Positions 1,090-9,511 of a DNA stretch of 32,281 nucleotides are shown one piece after another. Source of the stretch: a virus (Duplodnaviria; Heunggongvirae; Uroviricota; Caudoviricetes); IMG/VR virus record IMGVR_UViG_2547132488_000023, positions 1 to 32,281 of that record; one strand, written 5' to 3'. Numbering within the stretch: the first letter of the stretch is position 1; each line of letters opens with the position of its first letter. Below the pieces are notes generated by a model. The model searched no databases. It worked only from the letters and a program-made list of their open reading frames with translations, and was not told the origin of the DNA. A program made the translations under genes and the position numbers.

Positions 1090-1389
1090 TCAGCCAGTCT
1101 TTTGGTCTGAGTGGTGCAAGGTTGTTGAGTCTTGTCCAATGTGTGCGAGAGCCGGGGCTATTTGTCCAGCTTCGGGATCTATTTCATCAAACATGAACCA
1201 GTCACGATACTTGCGAAAGCGTGGATGCTTAAACAGCTTCATACCTGCTTCCATAGGCATTTTTGATTTCCCTGATTCATATCCATGATATGTGTAGTAA
1301 TTAATTCCAATTAATTCAGCAAGTTCCTTAGTTTTAAGGCGTTCGGATTCACGAATGAGCTTTAATTTCTCGCTTTGTTCACTTGACAT
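1090..1389 (-). CDS. C: Immunity repressor C (HTH); ORF extends to 1407, but the ATG at 1389 gives a 99-aa product with a GGAG upstream
   Basis: Small HTH protein (KELAELIGINYYTYHGYESGKS) on the same strand as int and divergent from cox-like gene; position matches P2 C. Confidence 0.7.
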   Translation of the reverse strand: MSSEQSEKLKLIRESERLKTKELAELIGINYYTYHGYESGKSKMPMEAGMKLFKHPRFRKYRDWFMFDEIDPEAGQIAPALAHIGQDSTTLHHSDQKTG

Positions 1390-1482
1390 AATTTTGCTAA
1401 TCTCCAATTATATGGCTACTTGGTAATTTGTGATGCACTCAAAAAGGCTCTAGATGGCTCCAGTTGGTGAATTACAAATCTT
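1390..1482. promoter_or_regulatory. Immunity switch region between divergent repressor and cox-like genes (expected Pc/Pe promoters and operators)
   Basis: 93-bp AT-rich spacer; TATAAT hexamer on minus strand at 1407-1412; candidate TTGTGA-N17-TAGATG on plus strand; operator repeats not resolved. Confidence 0.45.
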
Positions 1483-2562: not shown

Positions 2563-2820
2563 TTGTGCGGGGCTTCTTTTTGCCTGGAGAAAGTCATGCA
2601 TACAGTTTCTGAAAATCAGTGCGGTAAATACGCATTACTGCTGCAACAGGCCAGAACCGAAGCACAGGCCGACGCGGCGACGCGCTTTTCTTCTCATCTT
2701 GACGCCATGATTCGCCACATCACAAAGGCGGAGTTATCCCGCGTGGAGATAGTCGAGCTGCTCAGTCAGGAGTCGGAAAAATTTCACAATATCGGATTGT
2801 CTCGCGGGGAGGTGCTTTGA
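2563..2820 (+). CDS. Hypothetical early protein (P2 orf80 position)
   Basis: 85-aa ORF in conserved early operon position. Confidence 0.55.
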
Positions 2821-3122
2821 TGTCCTGTTCTCATTCAGTTGTATTACTGAATAACGCCTTAAAAATCGCCGTTATGAAAAATGGCGATTTGTCTCTTATT
2901 CAACTTGGTCTTGATAAAGAAAAACGCGACATAACTGAATCTGTAATCGCGATTTATCAGAATGAATTAAACCTCCTGTCTGATGTGGTCAATTTACTTG
3001 TTAAACGCGCTGTATTTCATAAGCAAATCTCCTCCGTGGATGAACTGACAAAATTAACGACAGAAATCGCCAGCTATTGCGCTGATGAATTTAAGAAGCT
3101 GAACGACAAAAGGAGCTGGTAA
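2817..3122 (+). CDS. Hypothetical early protein (P2 orf81 position)
   Basis: 101-aa ORF with ATGA-type overlap to neighbours. Confidence 0.55.
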
Positions 3123-3346
3123 TGCCGGACAACGTAGATTTTATTCAGGAACAACAGGCTGAATTACTGGAGCGCCAGATTAATGCGGCAAGGGTAAAAC
3201 ATTGCGGTGTTTCTTCGCTGGTTTGCGAAGAGTGTGATGCGCCAATACCTGCTGCCCGTCGTGCGGCTTATCCGTCAGTCACGCGTTGTGTTTCCTGTCA
3301 GTCAGTCTTTGAAGCAAAAAACAAGCATTACCGGAGAATGGCATGA
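3122..3346 (+). CDS. TraR/DksA-like C4 zinc-finger protein (P2 orf82 position)
   Basis: 74 aa with CEEC-x17-CVSC four-cysteine zinc-finger spacing typical of the TraR/DksA family. Confidence 0.65.
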   Translation: MPDNVDFIQEQQAELLERQINAARVKHCGVSSLVCEECDAPIPAARRAAYPSVTRCVSCQSVFEAKNKHYRRMA

Positions 3347-3624
3347 GCATTCGTATCGAGATTGGCGAGCGTTATGTAGTCACAAATGACCGTTTTCAGT
3401 TCATTTTGCAGGAGAGAAAGACCGCTGAAACCGGGAAGAATGCCGGTAAAGAGTGGCTGGATGTTGTCGGCTATTACCCCAAATTAAACCAGCTCGTTTC
3501 CGGTCTGATCCATCACGATATTTTGAGCGGTAACGCTGTCTCTTTTGAGGCGCTGAGCTCTCAGGTTGAGCAGCTCGGTCAGCAGTGTCTGACTGCGTTT
3601 CTCTGTGCGGGGAAATCTAAATGA
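3343..3624 (+). CDS. Hypothetical early protein (P2 orf83 position)
   Basis: 93-aa ORF immediately upstream of the inserted PP-loop gene, overlapping starts/stops. Confidence 0.55.
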   Translation: MSIRIEIGERYVVTNDRFQFILQERKTAETGKNAGKEWLDVVGYYPKLNQLVSGLIHHDILSGNAVSFEALSSQVEQLGQQCLTAFLCAGKSK

Positions 3625-4628
3625 TAGTTGATACCCGCTGCCGAGCTGAAAGCTCTATCAATATTATTTCTGTTTCTGGCGGAAAGGATAGCCTTGCTCA
3701 ATGGCTTGTTGGTATTGAAAGCGGTGTGCATTTTTTGCCGGTTTTTGCAGACACCGGGCATGAGCATCCGCAGACAATGGAGTATCTCGATTATCTGGAG
3801 AACCGACTCGGGCCGGTTAAACGGGTTAAAGCTGACTTCTCCCGACAGATTGAAGGTAAGCGCAAGTTTATTGCTGAGAAATGGCCTGTTTCTCTGGTTG
3901 AAGAGTGCGGAATGTCTCCAGGGGAAGCGGCAGAGCGCATCAATTGTGCGCTGGAAATTCTCAAGCCTACTGGTATCCCATTTCTTGATTTGTGCATGTG
4001 GAAAGGGCGATTTCCTTCCACTAAAGCCAGATTTTGCACTTTTGACCTTAAACATGAGCCAGTACGTACTCAGGTCGTGTTACCTGCGCTTAATGAGTTT
4101 GATGAGGTAATTAGCTGGCAGGGGGTTCGCGCTCAGGAGTCTCCTGCGCGCGCGGGTCTGCCTGCCTGGGAAGAGGATGCGGACAATACGCCCGGGCTCC
4201 ATGTATACCGTCCTATTCTGAACTGGACGCATGAGGAGGTATTTGCATTTGCAAGACGTCATGGAATTAAACCTAATCCGTTATACCAGCAGGGATGCAG
4301 TCGTGTCGGTTGTATGCCCTGCATCCACGCCAGAAAGTCTGAATTAGCTGAAATTTTTAGTAGCTGGCCGGAAGAGGTTAAGCGTGTTGCGGAATGGGAG
4401 CGACTTGTCGCCGCATGCTCCAGACGCGGAAATTCTACTTTCTTCCCGTCAACTCATGACCCGCGTCGTGCGGAACGCCGCATTGATATTATTACTGTCG
4501 ATGCTTACGGAATTGAGTCTTATCGTGACTGGGCGATGACCACGCGTGGCGGGGCACAGTTTGATTTGCTGGCTTCGGTGAATGATAAGTCAGTTTGCAG
4601 TAGTGTCTATGCCGGTGTATGTGAATGA
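3621..4628 (+). CDS. PAPS reductase-family (PP-loop ATP pyrophosphatase, DndC/CysH-like) protein; accessory moron in the early operon
   Basis: 335 aa; N-terminal PP-loop SVSGGKDS; C-terminal cysteine cluster CSRVGCMPC; ATGA overlaps with orf83 (3621-3624) and A (4625-4628); not part of canonical P2 backbone. Confidence 0.75.
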   Translation: MIVDTRCRAESSINIISVSGGKDSLAQWLVGIESGVHFLPVFADTGHEHPQTMEYLDYLENRLGPVKRVKADFSRQIEGKRKFIAEKWPVSLVEECGMSPGEAAERINCALEILKPTGIPFLDLCMWKGRFPSTKARFCTFDLKHEPVRTQVVLPALNEFDEVISWQGVRAQESPARAGLPAWEEDADNTPGLHVYRPILNWTHEEVFAFARRHGIKPNPLYQQGCSRVGCMPCIHARKSELAEIFSSWPEEVKRVAEWERLVAACSRRGNSTFFPSTHDPRRAERRIDIITVDAYGIESYRDWAMTTRGGAQFDLLASVNDKSVCSSVYAGVCE

Positions 4629-6901
4629 GTCATTCTTTCCAGGAGCAATACACCTGCGTACCTCCGTCAGCATTTGCTGCAGGCACCGGTAAGACGTTTA
4701 CCGGTGCTTATGCATGGAACGCGCCACGCGAGGCCGTCGGGCGCGAAAGACCCCTTACACGTGACGAGATGCGTCAGGTGCAAGGTGTTTTATCCACGAT
4801 TAACCGCCTGCCTTACTTTTTGCGCTCGCTGTTTACTTCACGCTATGACTACATCCGGCGCAATAAAAGCCCGGTGCACGGGTTTTATTTTCTCACATCC
4901 ACTTTTCAGCGTCGTTTATGGCCGCGCATTGAGCGTGTGAATCAGCGCCATGAAATGAACACCGACGCGTCGTTGCTGTTTCTGGCAGAGCGTGACCATT
5001 ATGCGCGTCTGCCGGGGATGAATGACAAGGAGCTGAAAAAGTTTGCCGCCCGTATCTCATCGCAGTTTTTCATGATGTATGAGGAACTCTGCGATGCCTG
5101 GGTGGATGCGCATGGCGAAAAAGAATCGCTGTTTACGGATGAGGCGCAGGCGCATCTGTATGGTCATGTTGCTGGCGCTGCACGTGCTTTCAATATTTCC
5201 CCGCTTTACTGGAAAAAATACCGTAAAGGACAGATGACCACGAGGCAGGCATATTCTGCCATTGCCCGTCTGTTTAACGATGAGTGGTGGACTCATCAGC
5301 TTAAAGGCCAGCGTATGCGCTGGCATGAAGCGTTACTGATAGCTGTCGGGGAGGTCAATAAAGACCGTTCTCCTTATGCCAGTAAACATGCCATTCGTGA
5401 TGTGCGTGCGCGCCGCCAGGCAAATCTGGAATTTCTTAAATCGTGTGACCTTGAAAACAGGGAAACCGGCGAGCGCATCGACCTTATCAGTAAGGTGATG
5501 GGCAGTATTTCTAATCCTGAAATTCGCCGGATGGAGCTGATGAACACCATTGCCGGTATTGAGCGTTACGCCGCCGCAGAGGGTGATGTGGGGATGTTTA
5601 TCACGCTGACCGCGCCGTCAAAGTATCACCCGACACGTCAGGTCGGAAAAGGCGAAAGTAAAACCGTTCAGCTTAATCACGGCTGGAACGATGAGGCATT
5701 TAATCCAAAGGATGCGCAGCGTTATCTCTGCCGTATCTGGAGCCTGATGCGCACGGCATTCAAGGATAATGATTTACAGGTCTACGGTTTGCGTGTCGTC
5801 GAGCCACACCACGACGGAACGCCGCACTGGCATATGATGCTTTTTTGTAATCCATGCCAGCGTAACCAGATTATCGAAATCATGCGTCGCTATGCGCTCA
5901 AAGAGGATAGTGACGAAAGAGGCGCTGCGCGAAACCGTTTTCAGGCAAAGCACCTTAACCGGGGCGGTGCTGCGGGATATATCGCGAAATACATCTCAAA
6001 AAACATCGACGGCTATGCACTGGATGGTCAGCTCGATAACGATACTGGCAGGCCGCTGAAAGATACTGCTGCGGCTGTTACCGCATGGGCGTCAACGTGG
6101 CGCATTCCGCAATTTAAAACGGTTGGCCTGCCGACAATGGGGGCTTACCGTGAACTACGCAAATTGCCTCACGGCGTCAGCATTGCTGATGAGTTTGACG
6201 AACGCGTCGAGGCTGCACGCGCCGCCGCAGACAGTGGTGATTTTGCGTTGTATATCAGCGCGCAGGGTGGGGCAAATGTCCCGCGCGATTGTCAGACTGT
6301 CAGGGTCGCCCGTAGCCCGTCGGATGACGTTAACGAGTATGAGGAAGAGGTCGAGAGAGTGGTCGGCATTTACGCGCCGCATCTCGGCGCGCGTCATATT
6401 CATATCACCAGAACGACGGACTGGCGCATTGTTCCGAAAGTTCCGGTCGTTGAGCCTTTGACTTTAAAAAGCGGCATCGCCGCGCCTCGGAGTCCTGTCA
6501 ATAACTGTGGAAAGCTCACCGGCGGTAATACTTCGTTACCGGTTCCCACGCCTTCTGAGCACGCCGCAGCAGTGCTAAATCTGGTTGATGACGGTGTTAT
6601 CAAATGGAATGAACCGGAGGTCGTGAGGGCGCTCAGGGGCGCATTAAAATACGACCTGAGAACGCCAAATCGTCAGCAAAGAAACGGAAGCCCGTTAAAA
6701 CCACATGAAATTGCACCATCGGCCAGACTGACCCGGTCGGAACGATTGCAAATCACCCGTATCCGCGTTGACCTTGCTCAGAACGGTATCAGGCCGCAGC
6801 GATGGGAGCTTGAGGCGCTGGCGCGTGGGGCAACTGTAAATTACGACGGGAGAAGCTTCAGTTATCCTGTTATATGTGATTGGAGAGCGTATGAATTATG
6901 A
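4625..6901 (+). CDS. A: Rolling-circle replication initiator A (HUH endonuclease; ori expected inside the gene)
   Basis: 758 aa; HUH motif HHDGTPHWHMM and tandem catalytic tyrosines in GYIAKYISKNIDGY; size and position match P2 gpA. Confidence 0.9.
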   Translation: MSHSFQEQYTCVPPSAFAAGTGKTFTGAYAWNAPREAVGRERPLTRDEMRQVQGVLSTINRLPYFLRSLFTSRYDYIRRNKSPVHGFYFLTSTFQRRLWPRIERVNQRHEMNTDASLLFLAERDHYARLPGMNDKELKKFAARISSQFFMMYEELCDAWVDAHGEKESLFTDEAQAHLYGHVAGAARAFNISPLYWKKYRKGQMTTRQAYSAIARLFNDEWWTHQLKGQRMRWHEALLIAVGEVNKDRSPYASKHAIRDVRARRQANLEFLKSCDLENRETGERIDLISKVMGSISNPEIRRMELMNTIAGIERYAAAEGDVGMFITLTAPSKYHPTRQVGKGESKTVQLNHGWNDEAFNPKDAQRYLCRIWSLMRTAFKDNDLQVYGLRVVEPHHDGTPHWHMMLFCNPCQRNQIIEIMRRYALKEDSDERGAARNRFQAKHLNRGGAAGYIAKYISKNIDGYALDGQLDNDTGRPLKDTAAAVTAWASTWRIPQFKTVGLPTMGAYRELRKLPHGVSIADEFDERVEAARAAADSGDFALYISAQGGANVPRDCQTVRVARSPSDDVNEYEEEVERVVGIYAPHLGARHIHITRTTDWRIVPKVPVVEPLTLKSGIAAPRSPVNNCGKLTGGNTSLPVPTPSEHAAAVLNLVDDGVIKWNEPEVVRALRGALKYDLRTPNRQQRNGSPLKPHEIAPSARLTRSERLQITRIRVDLAQNGIRPQRWELEALARGATVNYDGRSFSYPVICDWRAYEL

Positions 6902-6994: not shown

Positions 6995-8050
6995 TTAATT
7001 TTTAAATATGGATTGTATGTATTCTATAGTGCTATCTTTAGCTCTGATGTCTTTTAAAGTGTTATTTATGAAATCTATTATTCTGTCATTACTTAATAGT
7101 GGCGATAACGCATAACATGTTGTTGTGAATGTCATGACGTCACTAAAGCTTAGTGAAACACCTTTTGTCGCAGCGTTCTCAATCGCAATAGACTCATCAA
7201 TATCTAAGTTTGTTGCTCTTGGCCCTTTAAGGAAGATAACTTTTGAAATCCCGGATGCAGATGCTTTTGAAACGGCGTGATTAACATCTTGATAATTAAA
7301 TGGTTTGTCTTTCACTTCTATAGAAAGGAAAACTATATCATCATGATATACATCTATGTCCAGTATCTCTTTTGAGGAGCTACCGGCCTGATTGACGGGA
7401 TGTGCTTTTATTATCCATCCTCTTTGTTCACCTAATAAGTGTAGCGAAATTGCGGCAGCAATCGCGCATGTTTCTCCATCACAAGGATGAGATATAATAT
7501 TATAAATAATCTTATGGAAATCAAAATTAATTGAGTTCGGCGTTATAACTCTATTGGTTCGCTGTAGGGTAAAATATAATGCAATAACAAGCATTTCATA
7601 AGCTAAGGTTTGGGTTGTTGCTGCATGTAATATATCAATTGAAAGTTGTTGTAAAACCTTATCATTTCCTCTGCGCACAGGGTTATCAGAGGAGTGGAGC
7701 ATGTAACGAGCTGGTTTATTTAGAAATGGCTCATTTGATGCGCCTAACTTACCCTCTAAAAATGGGCCTTCTACTTTGCCTACTATTACCGAATGACATA
7801 AACTTCTTGCATCATAGGCTCCGTCTACGGGGGCATTAGCTTGTAAAGCCAGAGGGTTTACTCTAGGGTCTGTTGCTTTTGCAAGTAAACCAGTAATAAG
7901 TATATATCTGTATGTAAGGTGGGTGCCTAAAATTACATTTTGAATGGAGACCCATTGATTATTTGTTTTGTAATCAGTTAATTTTTTTGCATCGTTGATT
8001 GCATTTATAATTACATTATAGGCTTGCTCATGATTTACTAATACTTTCAT
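6995..8050 (-). CDS. Putative type II restriction endonuclease (family not recognised) of an R-M cassette
   Basis: 351 aa; start overlaps the last codons of the upstream HTH controller gene; divergent from a C5-MTase; candidate PD-(D/E)xK-like segment ILDIDVYHDDIVFLSIEVKDK; markedly AT-rich. Confidence 0.5.
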   Translation of the reverse strand: MKVLVNHEQAYNVIINAINDAKKLTDYKTNNQWVSIQNVILGTHLTYRYILITGLLAKATDPRVNPLALQANAPVDGAYDARSLCHSVIVGKVEGPFLEGKLGASNEPFLNKPARYMLHSSDNPVRRGNDKVLQQLSIDILHAATTQTLAYEMLVIALYFTLQRTNRVITPNSINFDFHKIIYNIISHPCDGETCAIAAAISLHLLGEQRGWIIKAHPVNQAGSSSKEILDIDVYHDDIVFLSIEVKDKPFNYQDVNHAVSKASASGISKVIFLKGPRATNLDIDESIAIENAATKGVSLSFSDVMTFTTTCYALSPLLSNDRIIDFINNTLKDIRAKDSTIEYIQSIFKN

Positions 8051-8342
8051 AGGTGTCCTTTAGTAAGATATCCATTGGTAGACCTAATCGGCTTGCAACC
8101 ACCTCTAATAATTCAAATAGTTCTAAAGCATCTAATCGCCTTTCAAAGCTTTCGATTTTAGATATATCTGATTGTGATAATCCTAGAAAAATGGCCAATT
8201 CTGACTGCGAAAGAGAAGCTTCTTTGCGTAGTTTGGTGAGAAGCTGGACTAGGCACCTGTATCTATGATCATGTATAGTTGGTTGTCGTTTTGCCATGTG
8301 GTTTAGAAGGTGATTGATTGTGTGTCGATCCTTACCTATCAT
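8028..8342 (-). CDS. Controller (C-protein-like) XRE-family HTH regulator of the R-M cassette; possible alternative start at 8297 (89 aa)
   Basis: 104-aa ORF with HTH SLSQSELAIFLGLSQSDISKIESFERR; immediately upstream of and overlapping the putative endonuclease gene, divergent from the MTase, as in PvuII-type C-controlled systems. Confidence 0.65.
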   Translation of the reverse strand: MIGKDRHTINHLLNHMAKRQPTIHDHRYRCLVQLLTKLRKEASLSQSELAIFLGLSQSDISKIESFERRLDALELFELLEVVASRLGLPMDILLKDTYESISKS

Positions 8343-9511
8343 TGGTTTTATTCCAAAATCGAATAATTGGTGCTAAAGAAGTGAACAAAATTTCAGCGGT
8401 GAGCTTATTTACTGGGGCAGGAGGGATGGATGTCGGTTTCTCTAATGCCGGGTTCCGAACAGTTTGGGCCAATGATATAGATAAGGATGCATGTGATACA
8501 TTTAAGCTTAATCATGAATCACCTGTTTTTTGTGGTGATATTGATGAGATGCTAAGTGAATTGTCTGGGCTGAAAAATATAGGTTGTGTTTTTGGTGGGC
8601 CTCCATGCCAAGGATTTTCTGTGGCAGGGAAAATGGACGCTCATGATCCACGTAGTAAGCTGGTTATGTCATTCATGCGGGCGGTGGATATAATTCAACC
8701 AGAATGCTTTGTTATGGAGAATGTTAAGGCTTTAGCACAGTTGTCCAAATTTGAACCAGTTAGGTGTGAACTGTTTAAGATGGCTGAAAAGTCAGGCTAT
8801 CGTTCAGCCTTGCTGGTGCTGAATTCTAAAGATTTTGGCGTTCCTCAGAATAGGGAACGTATGTTTTTTATAGGGTTTCGTTCCGAAAATGATGTGAAAC
8901 AAGTTGAGGTGGCGATAAAAAAATACCAATATCTTTCGCCCACAGTTGGTGAGATTATTCGGCCTTTAGGGCGAGCGGGTAATCCAAACAATTCAAGAGT
9001 CTGTAATGCAAGGATTACAAATGCTGCTAAGCCAGTATTACGGAAGTCACCTTACGCGGGAATGATGTTTAACGGGCAGGGAAGACCAATTAACCCGAAT
9101 GGGTATGCTTCAACTATAGCTGCTTCTATGGGGGGGAATAGGACACCAATTATTGATGAAGAACACCTTTATGATGGCTCAACAAGTTATGTTGAGACTT
9201 ATCATAATCATCTAATGAATGGTGGTGAGCCAAAAGATATGCACGATGTACCTAGTCGTTTACGTCGACTAACGATAGATGAGGCTCTTTTGATTCAAAC
9301 ATTCCCGAGTAATTATGTCTTTGTGGGGAAAAATTCGTCAATTTGGCGTCAGATAGGGAATGCTGTGCCTTGTAAATTGGCGCAGGCTGTTGCTGCAGGG
9401 GTTTTGGATGTCCTTACTGGAAAAACTATTAATGTTCAAAAGAGTCAAACAGAGTTGAGTTTGAATTCGAAAAACGGATCACATTTTCAAACCGATGGAT
9501 GCAGAATTTAA
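8318..9511 (+). CDS. DNA (cytosine-5) methyltransferase (Dcm-like); true start may be the in-frame GTG near 8381
   Basis: Motif I FTGAGGMDVGF, motif IV GGPPCQGFSVAGK, motif VI ENVKAL, motif VIII QNRERMFFIGF, motif X GNAVP; variable region between VIII and IX. Confidence 0.9.
   Translation: MCVDPYLSLVLFQNRIIGAKEVNKISAVSLFTGAGGMDVGFSNAGFRTVWANDIDKDACDTFKLNHESPVFCGDIDEMLSELSGLKNIGCVFGGPPCQGFSVAGKMDAHDPRSKLVMSFMRAVDIIQPECFVMENVKALAQLSKFEPVRCELFKMAEKSGYRSALLVLNSKDFGVPQNRERMFFIGFRSENDVKQVEVAIKKYQYLSPTVGEIIRPLGRAGNPNNSRVCNARITNAAKPVLRKSPYAGMMFNGQGRPINPNGYASTIAASMGGNRTPIIDEEHLYDGSTSYVETYHNHLMNGGEPKDMHDVPSRLRRLTIDEALLIQTFPSNYVFVGKNSSIWRQIGNAVPCKLAQAVAAGVLDVLTGKTINVQKSQTELSLNSKNGSHFQTDGCRI
8343..8380. 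promoter_or_regulatory. Divergent control region of the R-M cassette with palindrome TTATTC-N7-GAATAA (8348-8366); candidate C-box/operator
   Basis: Perfect 6-bp inverted repeat with 7-bp spacer between the divergent C-R and M genes; tandem GATT repeats just upstream at about 8310-8325. Confidence 0.35.

Follow-up and report, generated by a model that had tools for sequence, protein, structure and literature searches.

A PP-loop protein encoded upstream of replication gene A in a P2-like phage, orthologous to coliphage 186 Orf84, as a candidate DNA sulfur-transfer enzyme

Phage genes named for phosphoadenosine phosphosulfate (PAPS) reductase are among the commonest metabolically labeled phage genes and are routinely counted as auxiliary genes of sulfur metabolism. 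We analyzed such a gene in a 32,281-nucleotide (nt) stretch of Caudoviricetes DNA (positions 1 to 32,281 of IMG/VR record IMGVR_UViG_2547132488_000023; hereafter, the window), in which a protein of 335 amino acids (aa) is encoded directly upstream of the replication initiator gene A. The motifs and the genomic context of this protein argue that the metabolic label is wrong for its clade, the members of which look like DNA modification or counter-defense enzymes. Our tentative proposal, which we regard as possible, is that the protein is a DndC/SspD-type iron-sulfur (Fe-S) sulfurtransferase, ATP dependent and expressed early, with DNA as its substrate and counter-defense as its role. The gene is a non-essential accessory carried on a small exchangeable cassette, in a variable slot before A.

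Full-length identity, synteny, and overlapping codons all match those of the orf84 group of coliphage 186, and by these sequence features the window gene is the orthologue of a catalogued, non-essential gene and is of low novelty. Its DNA is 99.7% identical to genes annotated "PAPS reductase family" in Yersinia phage P37 and in a record named Peduovirus P2, and 14 complete Escherichia coli genomes hold copies that are 99.6 to 99.8% identical. The 186 Orf84 protein (NP_052288; CP84) shares 82% amino acid identity over residues 2 to 335 of the window protein. A member of the family was described as "similar to Phage 186 Orf84" as early as 2002, in the record of phage phiE125. The initial annotation of the window had presented the gene as inserted between orf83 and A. 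This holds relative to phage P2, in which Orf83 is followed directly by A with no gene between; as a novel insertion it does not stand, since the arrangement is native to 186 and the gene is already annotated in public records. The RefSeq record of 186 lists orf84 as "unknown function; not essential" and states that translation to the orf84 end appears necessary for the A protein to be translated. A search for a functional paper on 186 orf84 found none, and the full-text literature search gave only an unrelated paper on a Paraburkholderia prophage. Phage 186 is among the best-characterized of the temperate phages, and the orthologue is dispensable for its growth.

Motifs and family relationships of the 335-aa protein

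The open reading frame (ORF), the SGGKDS and CSRVGCMPC motifs, and the overlapping codons on both sides that had been described initially are all present in the sequence (Table 1). Compared with its orthologues in 186 and in E. coli, the gene has a ratio of nonsynonymous to synonymous substitution (dN/dS) of 0.04 to 0.08, with synonymous sites saturated, and it is therefore a real, constrained gene and no chance ORF. Its placement in the PAPS-reductase/PP-loop family is backed by both Pfam and PHROG. The protein passes the gathering cut-off of PF01507 (PAPS_reduct; 123.3 versus 22.5 bits; residues 15 to 236; E = 1.4e-35), and it matches phrog_15238 (6e-88) and phrog_424 ("PAPS reductase"; E = 3e-84), the latter only at profile positions 150 to 420 of 460, so that the N-terminal stretch of this profile is left unmatched by the protein.

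In an alignment of 55 relatives (37 to 90% identity to the window protein), the following residues are invariant: G21, D23, S24, D44, E48, D123, F131, C139, K144, G168, R170, E173, N219, L221, Y222, V229, C231, K239, E260, and C334. At least 90% of the relatives share the PP-loop residues S19, G20, and K22 and, in the C-terminal tail, C326, G332, and E335; C125 is found in about 80%, and one estimate for C326 is also about 80%. The ATP pyrophosphatase signature SGGxDS is thus present as SGGKDS and is invariant or nearly so across the family. Within the CSRVGCMPC motif, C231 is conserved in 100% and C234 in 97% of the relatives, and the first cysteine, C226, in only 11%. The initial description of this cysteine cluster as C-terminal needs correction, as the motif sits two-thirds along the protein. 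In alignments of hidden Markov models (HMMs), the family consensus RVGCmPCi aligns with SIGCePCT and SIGCaPCT, which are the Fe-S CXXC motifs of the adenosine phosphosulfate (APS) reductases 2goy and 7lhr. A single cysteine (C139) stands where a CC pair is expected, and the HMM alignment to the reductases starts only at E146-P147; C139...K144 may be the equivalent of the CC...K motif of APS reductases. A PP-loop combined with Fe-S-like cysteines and a tail cysteine is the mark of ATP-driven [4Fe-4S] sulfur-insertion enzymes, such as DndC, SspD, TtuA, TtcA, and NcsA. An AlphaFold2 model of the protein has a predicted local distance difference test (pLDDT) score of 93.2, and the lower score of the C-terminal tail (59 to 82) is consistent with a tail that would be mobile.

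These features bear on the reading implied by the database names and assumed in some prophage surveys, in which the protein is a genuine (P)APS reductase, i.e., an auxiliary metabolic gene product that raises sulfate assimilation during infection. The nearest solved folds are indeed CysH and APS reductase. CysH/PAPS reductases are characterized by a degenerate P-loop and a catalytic ECGLH motif at the C terminus, and E. coli already has cysH. At the PP-loop position, the HMM alignment has SSSFGIQ in CysH and SFSGAEDV in APS reductase, whereas the window family keeps the canonical loop, and the window protein ends in YAGVCE, with no ECGLH tail. It also misses the NCBIfam cut-off of every reductase equivalog, namely, CysH TIGR00434 (42.4 versus 165.1 bits), PRK02090 NF002537 (63.3 versus 154 bits), APS reductase TIGR02055 (52.6 versus 235.3 bits), and PAPS reductase TIGR02057 (39.1 versus 254.2 bits). 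Relative to the solved structures, it has an insert of 62 residues (74 to 135) and a C-terminal extension of 96 residues (240 to 335), both foreign to reductases, and its genomic context consists of replication and methylase genes rather than sulfur metabolism. A metabolic reading has been adopted in a 2026 preprint, in which PAPS reductases of Bifidobacterium prophages are interpreted as sulfur-metabolism auxiliary genes with a role called uncertain. For the window protein, we consider this reading improbable.

The best match in the PADLOC defense library is SspD (E = 1.8e-21; best stretch at profile positions 72 to 202 of 277), followed by BrxP (1.5e-15), and the DndC profiles match at only 7e-7 (residues 132 to 214). 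The homology comparison with CysH, DndC, and related clades that the initial annotation had called for therefore places the protein in the PAPS_reduct family and below every CysH, APS-reductase, and DndC equivalog cut-off.

The wider family is large: an exhaustive search of representative sequences returned 2951 clusters at E ≤ 1e-3 and 351 at E ≤ 1e-30. Ten longer representatives were searched for fusions to Dam or ParB and gave no domain other than PAPS_reduct, apart from one weak match to Methyltransf_23. The idea that longer relatives (370 to 413 aa) are E. coli YbdN-like was dropped, as the clusters (Aeromonas and Photobacterium) are named only "PAPS reductase family protein." A plasmid search found 1261 plasmids, of which 1054 are conjugative, with a distant paralogue of the family (29% identity over residues 132 to 269). 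On the IncC plasmid pEC-13-49-NDM-1, the paralogue (L151, 5494-6609; 371 aa) lies near a RepB-family replication-initiator gene, and its neighbors are uninformative. The family profile also weakly matches PDB 21fy_C, named "PptA" (270 aa; E = 1.7e-4; profile positions 182 to 247); a literature search for a paper on this PptA found none.

The early operon and the variable slot before gene A

Both junctions of the PAPS-reductase-like gene have the form ATGA: at the first, its start codon ATG (3621) runs into the stop codon TGA (3622-3624) of the DUF5405/orf83-like ORF, and at the second, the TGA with which the PAPS-reductase-like gene ends (4626-4628) is overlapped by the ATG with which gene A begins at 4625. 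Farther upstream, a match to a Pe-like promoter occupies the same relative place as the annotated Pe of P2. Because of these neighbors, overlaps, and the Pe-like match, the gene is a member of the repressor-controlled early operon cox-B-orf80-83-X-A. The early placement and the overlap with A proposed at the outset are thus borne out, and the 186 record ties the translation of A to the orf84 end.

This coupling is what favors two explanations in which the ORF serves gene A. In the first, the ORF is a spacer that merely carries ribosomes to the A start, in line with the 186 annotation. The low dN/dS indicates that the protein itself is constrained, beyond acting as a ribosome conduit, and together with the invariant catalytic motifs and the confident fold, the selection analysis effectively refutes a spacer, which is hardly credible. 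In the second, the protein would be an accessory replication factor that helps the A protein, as its coupled position directly upstream of A might suggest. Against this, the gene is non-essential according to the 186 record, is missing from P2 and from about 97% of those E. coli prophages whose A gene is similar, and lies on a cassette common to lineages whose A genes do not align at the DNA level; moreover, family members are also encoded by lambda-like and other phages whose replication proteins are unrelated. A replication helper is therefore very improbable. The non-essentiality of orf84 is taken from the GenBank/RefSeq note together with work by Sivaprasad et al. (J Mol Biol, 1990), which reportedly showed A to be the only 186 gene required for replication.

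The boundaries of the cassette are defined by a near-identical twin prophage of E. coli FORC_082 (L149) that lacks the PAPS-reductase-like gene. Homology to this prophage ends at window position 3576 and restarts at 4658, so that 1081 bp in the window are replaced by 58 bp in the twin. Matches to gene A in genomes without the gene likewise begin at query position 34 to 37. In the comparison with 186, the DNA alignment is confined to the PAPS-reductase-like gene (74.7% identity), the flanks in the window being of the P2 type, so that the module has passed between lineages of the P2 and 186 types. A compositionally foreign origin of the gene was considered and ruled out: its GC content (0.50 to 0.52) is like that of gene A and differs from that of the restriction-modification (R-M) cassette farther downstream. 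Among the 5426 complete E. coli genomes, 67 have the gene, compared with 1724 that have a similar A gene (2029 places); among 60 species-representative gene A loci, it lies directly upstream of A in 6. With its absence from P2, this distribution is not that of a gene universal in P2-like phages with a known replication role, the outcome that the initial annotation had named as counting against its proposal.

The slot before A has four main states, i.e., empty, Dam, PAPS, and Dam plus PAPS. A prophage Dam gene is present in 1260 of the 5426 E. coli genomes, about 19 times the number with the PAPS-reductase-like gene, and the single example inspected has the gene order TraR > Dam > A, with codons that overlap. 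Around the PAPS-reductase-like gene, the commonest arrangement in IMG/VR is TraR > Dam > PAPS > A. Loci of other P2-like prophages have a C5 cytosine methylase, a DUF7415 + Lar-like restriction-alleviation protein, a TGT-like protein, or a protein of a "DNA topoisomerase" family at this place (Table 1); several further P2-like loci have small unknown ORFs in the slot, and elsewhere it is empty. This makes the slot a hot spot of early-expressed genes, of which many serve in DNA modification or anti-restriction. By analogy, the slot held in common with Dam suggests that the PAPS-like protein may have a comparable role as an early DNA modifier.

The initial annotation had also pointed to a "notable combination" with a separate R-M cassette. 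This type II cassette (6995-9511; GC content, 0.36 to 0.41) sits at the P2 tin/old position and is shared, at no less than 99.5% identity, by 20 complete E. coli genomes; every example opened has it in the context of this prophage. The same SacI-family R-M system is present in the near-identical prophage without the PAPS-reductase-like gene, several of the 20 R-M genomes have an A gene and lack the PAPS-reductase-like gene, and phages 186 and P37 carry the latter without this R-M system. Between the 20 R-M genomes and the best 20 of the 67 genomes carrying the PAPS-reductase-like gene, there was no overlap, the 47 carriers of lower identity being outside this comparison. Because each element occurs without the other in the twin prophage and in 186 and P37, the pairing is not meaningful: the R-M cassette is an independent acquisition, and its presence alongside the PAPS-like gene is a mosaic coincidence rather than a functional link.

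Table 1. Features of the window and of other loci with a gene in the slot upstream of A (L numbers denote loci outside the window, with coordinates of the locus)
Feature	Position	Strand	Remarks
Pe-like early promoter, candidate for cox-B-orf80-83-PAPS-A	1383..1411	+	TTGACA-17-AATTAT, consensus match only
DUF5405/P2 Orf83-like gene, upstream neighbor	3343..3624	+	Pfam DUF5405, E = 6.8e-13; phrog_154
Exchangeable cassette	3577..4657	+	Last 48 nt of orf83-like gene, whole PAPS-reductase-like gene, first 33 nt of A
PAPS-reductase-family gene, orthologue of coliphage 186 orf84	3621..4628	+	335-aa ORF
PP-loop SGGKDS, ATP pyrophosphatase signature	Residues 19-24, nt 3675-3692	+	Canonical sequence
Cys139, putative Fe-S ligand	nt 4035..4037	+	Invariant among relatives
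CSRVGCMPC motif	Residues 226-234, nt 4296-4322	+	C231 and C234 form the conserved CXXC
C-terminal tail C326-S-S-V-Y-A-G-V-C334-E335	4596..4625	+	Penultimate Cys invariant
Replication initiator gene A, downstream neighbor	4625..6901	+	Pfam Phage_GPA, E = 3.5e-123; phrog_91
SacI-family endonuclease	6995-8050	-	
Helix-turn-helix (HTH) controller protein	8028-8342	-	
C5 cytosine methylase of R-M cassette	8318-9511	+	
Prophage Dam, TraR > Dam > A	L147 3501-4358 (E. coli AR_0085)		Overlapping codons; one example opened
C5 cytosine methylase upstream of A	L048 4009-4920		PF00145, 4e-42
DUF7415 + Lar-like restriction-alleviation protein upstream of A	L027 4505-4927		
TGT-like protein, PHROG 887 "queuine tRNA-ribosyltransferase"	L041 4222-4968		3.7e-91; PHROG label, no Pfam match
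PHROG 6247 "DNA topoisomerase" family protein upstream of A	L042 4072-4974		

Three further observations concern the early region itself. The operon holds two DUF5405 paralogues in the window, an Orf81-like gene (2817-3122) and the Orf83-like gene (3343-3624); both carry the PHROG label "replication initiation protein," and the 186 record lists its DUF5405 homologue as non-essential. The cox-like ORF (1483-1854) encodes 123 aa in the window and in E. coli 65COLEC, compared with 91 aa for P2 Cox, suggestive of either a variant with an extended N terminus or an alternative start farther upstream. Lastly, a terminator-like hairpin (AAAGCCCGGTGCACGGGTTTT, then ATTTT; 4866-4886) lies about 240 nt into gene A and resembles the annotated terminator tM1 early in the 186 A gene, which is said to end transcripts when A is untranslated.

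Association with DNA methyltransferases and proposed function

In the IMG/VR set of 80 loci, a D12 Dam gene lies immediately upstream of the PAPS-like gene in 28, and a C5 or N4/N6 methylase adjoins it in 9 more, giving 37 of 80 loci with an adjacent DNA methyltransferase, a raw association rather than a statistic against background. ParB-HTH proteins are encoded at at least 3 of the 80 loci. Three IMG/VR loci (L077, L111, and L114) have a tblastn match to the protein and no intact ORF by a simple ORF criterion; these may be frameshifted copies or may reflect start-codon or coordinate effects. Unrelated temperate phages encode family members of 42 to 46% identity within their early operons. 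The gene order is methylase-PAPS-ParB in Burkholderia phiE125 and methylase-PAPS-methylase in Agrobacterium Rivra, Dam lies two genes downstream of the family member in Serratia Parlo, and a ParB-domain gene lies near it in Pseudomonas Riah.

In the literature, phage PAPS-reductase/DndC-like proteins are poorly characterized, in agreement with the initial remark. A preprint on a vibrio podophage describes a two-gene cassette, including a PAPS-domain-Dam fusion, with which a phage escapes host Dnd (10.1101/2021.05.05.442762). A 2026 paper in Nucleic Acids Research, which cites the vibrio work, names PAPS reductases of Aca-regulated operons among candidate anti-defense genes. JSS1_004 was rejected as an example of a "phage PAPS reductase that evades Dnd," being an unrelated T7-type kinase with a shutoff domain.

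Coexpression with A, a slot common to Dam, C5 methylase, Lar-like, and TGT-like genes, and the methylase link together argue for a DNA target and a role in restriction evasion. In the mechanism that we tentatively propose, ATP would be bound via the intact SGGKDS loop, and a [4Fe-4S] cluster would be held by C139, C231, and C234. Host IscS would be the probable sulfur donor, with either the cluster or the invariant C-terminal Cys334 as the acceptor, and an oxygen of the nucleic-acid substrate would be adenylated and then swapped for sulfur. As it is made with A, the protein would act on phage DNA at the start of replication, or else on the host phosphorothioate machinery, and the phage would be shielded from modification-dependent restriction such as Dnd or Ssp. 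We infer each of these properties, i.e., Fe-S binding, ATP pyrophosphatase activity, sulfur transfer, the DNA substrate, and the counter-defense role, from motifs and context. The suggestion in the initial annotation of an action in DNA modification or counter-defense is thus strengthened by the slot occupants and the methylase adjacency, which are circumstantial; it is better supported than the database name, and it is unproven.

Several points weigh against this proposal. DndC requires DndD and DndE, and SspD requires SspB and SspC; no DndD/E- or SspB/C-type partner adjoins the gene in the window, in 186, or in P37. The score against the DndC equivalog TIGR03183 is far from its cut-off (22.6 versus 290.4 bits), and for about 150 residues (the insert and the extension), no solved structure offers a counterpart. 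With an isoelectric point of 6.2, the protein is mildly acidic, and it has no recognizable DNA-binding domain. No methylase adjoins the gene in the window, and methylases are common in phage early regions. Assignment of the subfamily to DNA sulfur chemistry, being drawn from sequence, would be circumstantial. Finally, the vibrio protein p0018 is a fusion that was tested with a second gene, and it is likened to the window protein by description only.

The solitary state of the gene invites two further interpretations. A single-polypeptide phage DNA sulfur inserter, supplied with sulfur by a host IscS-type enzyme, might place phosphorothioate or thio-base marks without DndD/E or SspB/C. This is rather unlikely; if true, a lone sulfur inserter would represent a previously undescribed phage DNA modification for restriction evasion. 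Alternatively, the protein could be a decoy or inhibitor, i.e., a DndC/SspD mimic that titrates IscS, DndD/E, SspB/C, or the sulfur donor and leaves phage DNA unmodified. Its homology to SspD, BrxP, and DndC, the lack of partner genes, and the anti-Dnd precedent set by a PAPS-domain protein would all fit a decoy. However, catalytic-type residues are invariant (the PP-loop, D44/E48, K144, R170/E173, and the cysteine set) and purifying selection is strong along the whole length, both of which fit an active enzyme better, and the family occurs in phages of many hosts, usually paired with methylases. We therefore rate a decoy as quite unlikely.

The chemistry itself would also be compatible with thiolation or adenylation of a target other than DNA, such as tRNA or rRNA (as with TtcA, TtuA, and ThiI) or a nucleotide or cofactor. 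Host translation or metabolism would then be changed, or RNA-targeting defenses would be evaded. The genomic links are instead to DNA-acting genes (Dam, C5 and N4/N6 methylases, ParB, and the replication initiator), and the nearest defense-library profiles, SspD, BrxP, and DndC, are those of DNA phosphorothioation enzymes. A non-DNA target is accordingly doubtful and, in our judgment, unlikely.

Comparison with known systems

The closest known counterpart is 186 orf84, which, like the window gene, sits between a DUF5405 gene and A with stop/start overlaps in the same early operon. The assimilatory APS reductases of, e.g., Pseudomonas aeruginosa (2goy) and Mycobacterium tuberculosis (7lhr) and CysH align with only about 183 of the 335 window residues, and these enzymes lack a functional PP-loop and carry the ECGLH tail cysteine, whereas the window protein has SGGKDS and fails their curated cut-offs. 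The Dam proteins of 186-like E. coli prophages occupy exactly the same translationally coupled slot, with unrelated fold and chemistry. In the vibrio protein p0018 (Piel et al., Nat Microbiol 2022), a PAPS domain is linked to Dam within one polypeptide; in P2-like contigs, the corresponding link is the adjacency of Dam and PAPS genes noted above. DndC, SspD, and BrxP share with the window protein the PAPS_reduct fold, an SGGKDS-type PP-loop, and cysteines suited to an Fe-S cluster. Unlike these three, which belong to host defense islands, the window protein is phage encoded in a lytic operon, and it is set apart by a helical insert of its own and by a C-terminal extension terminating in G-x-C-E.

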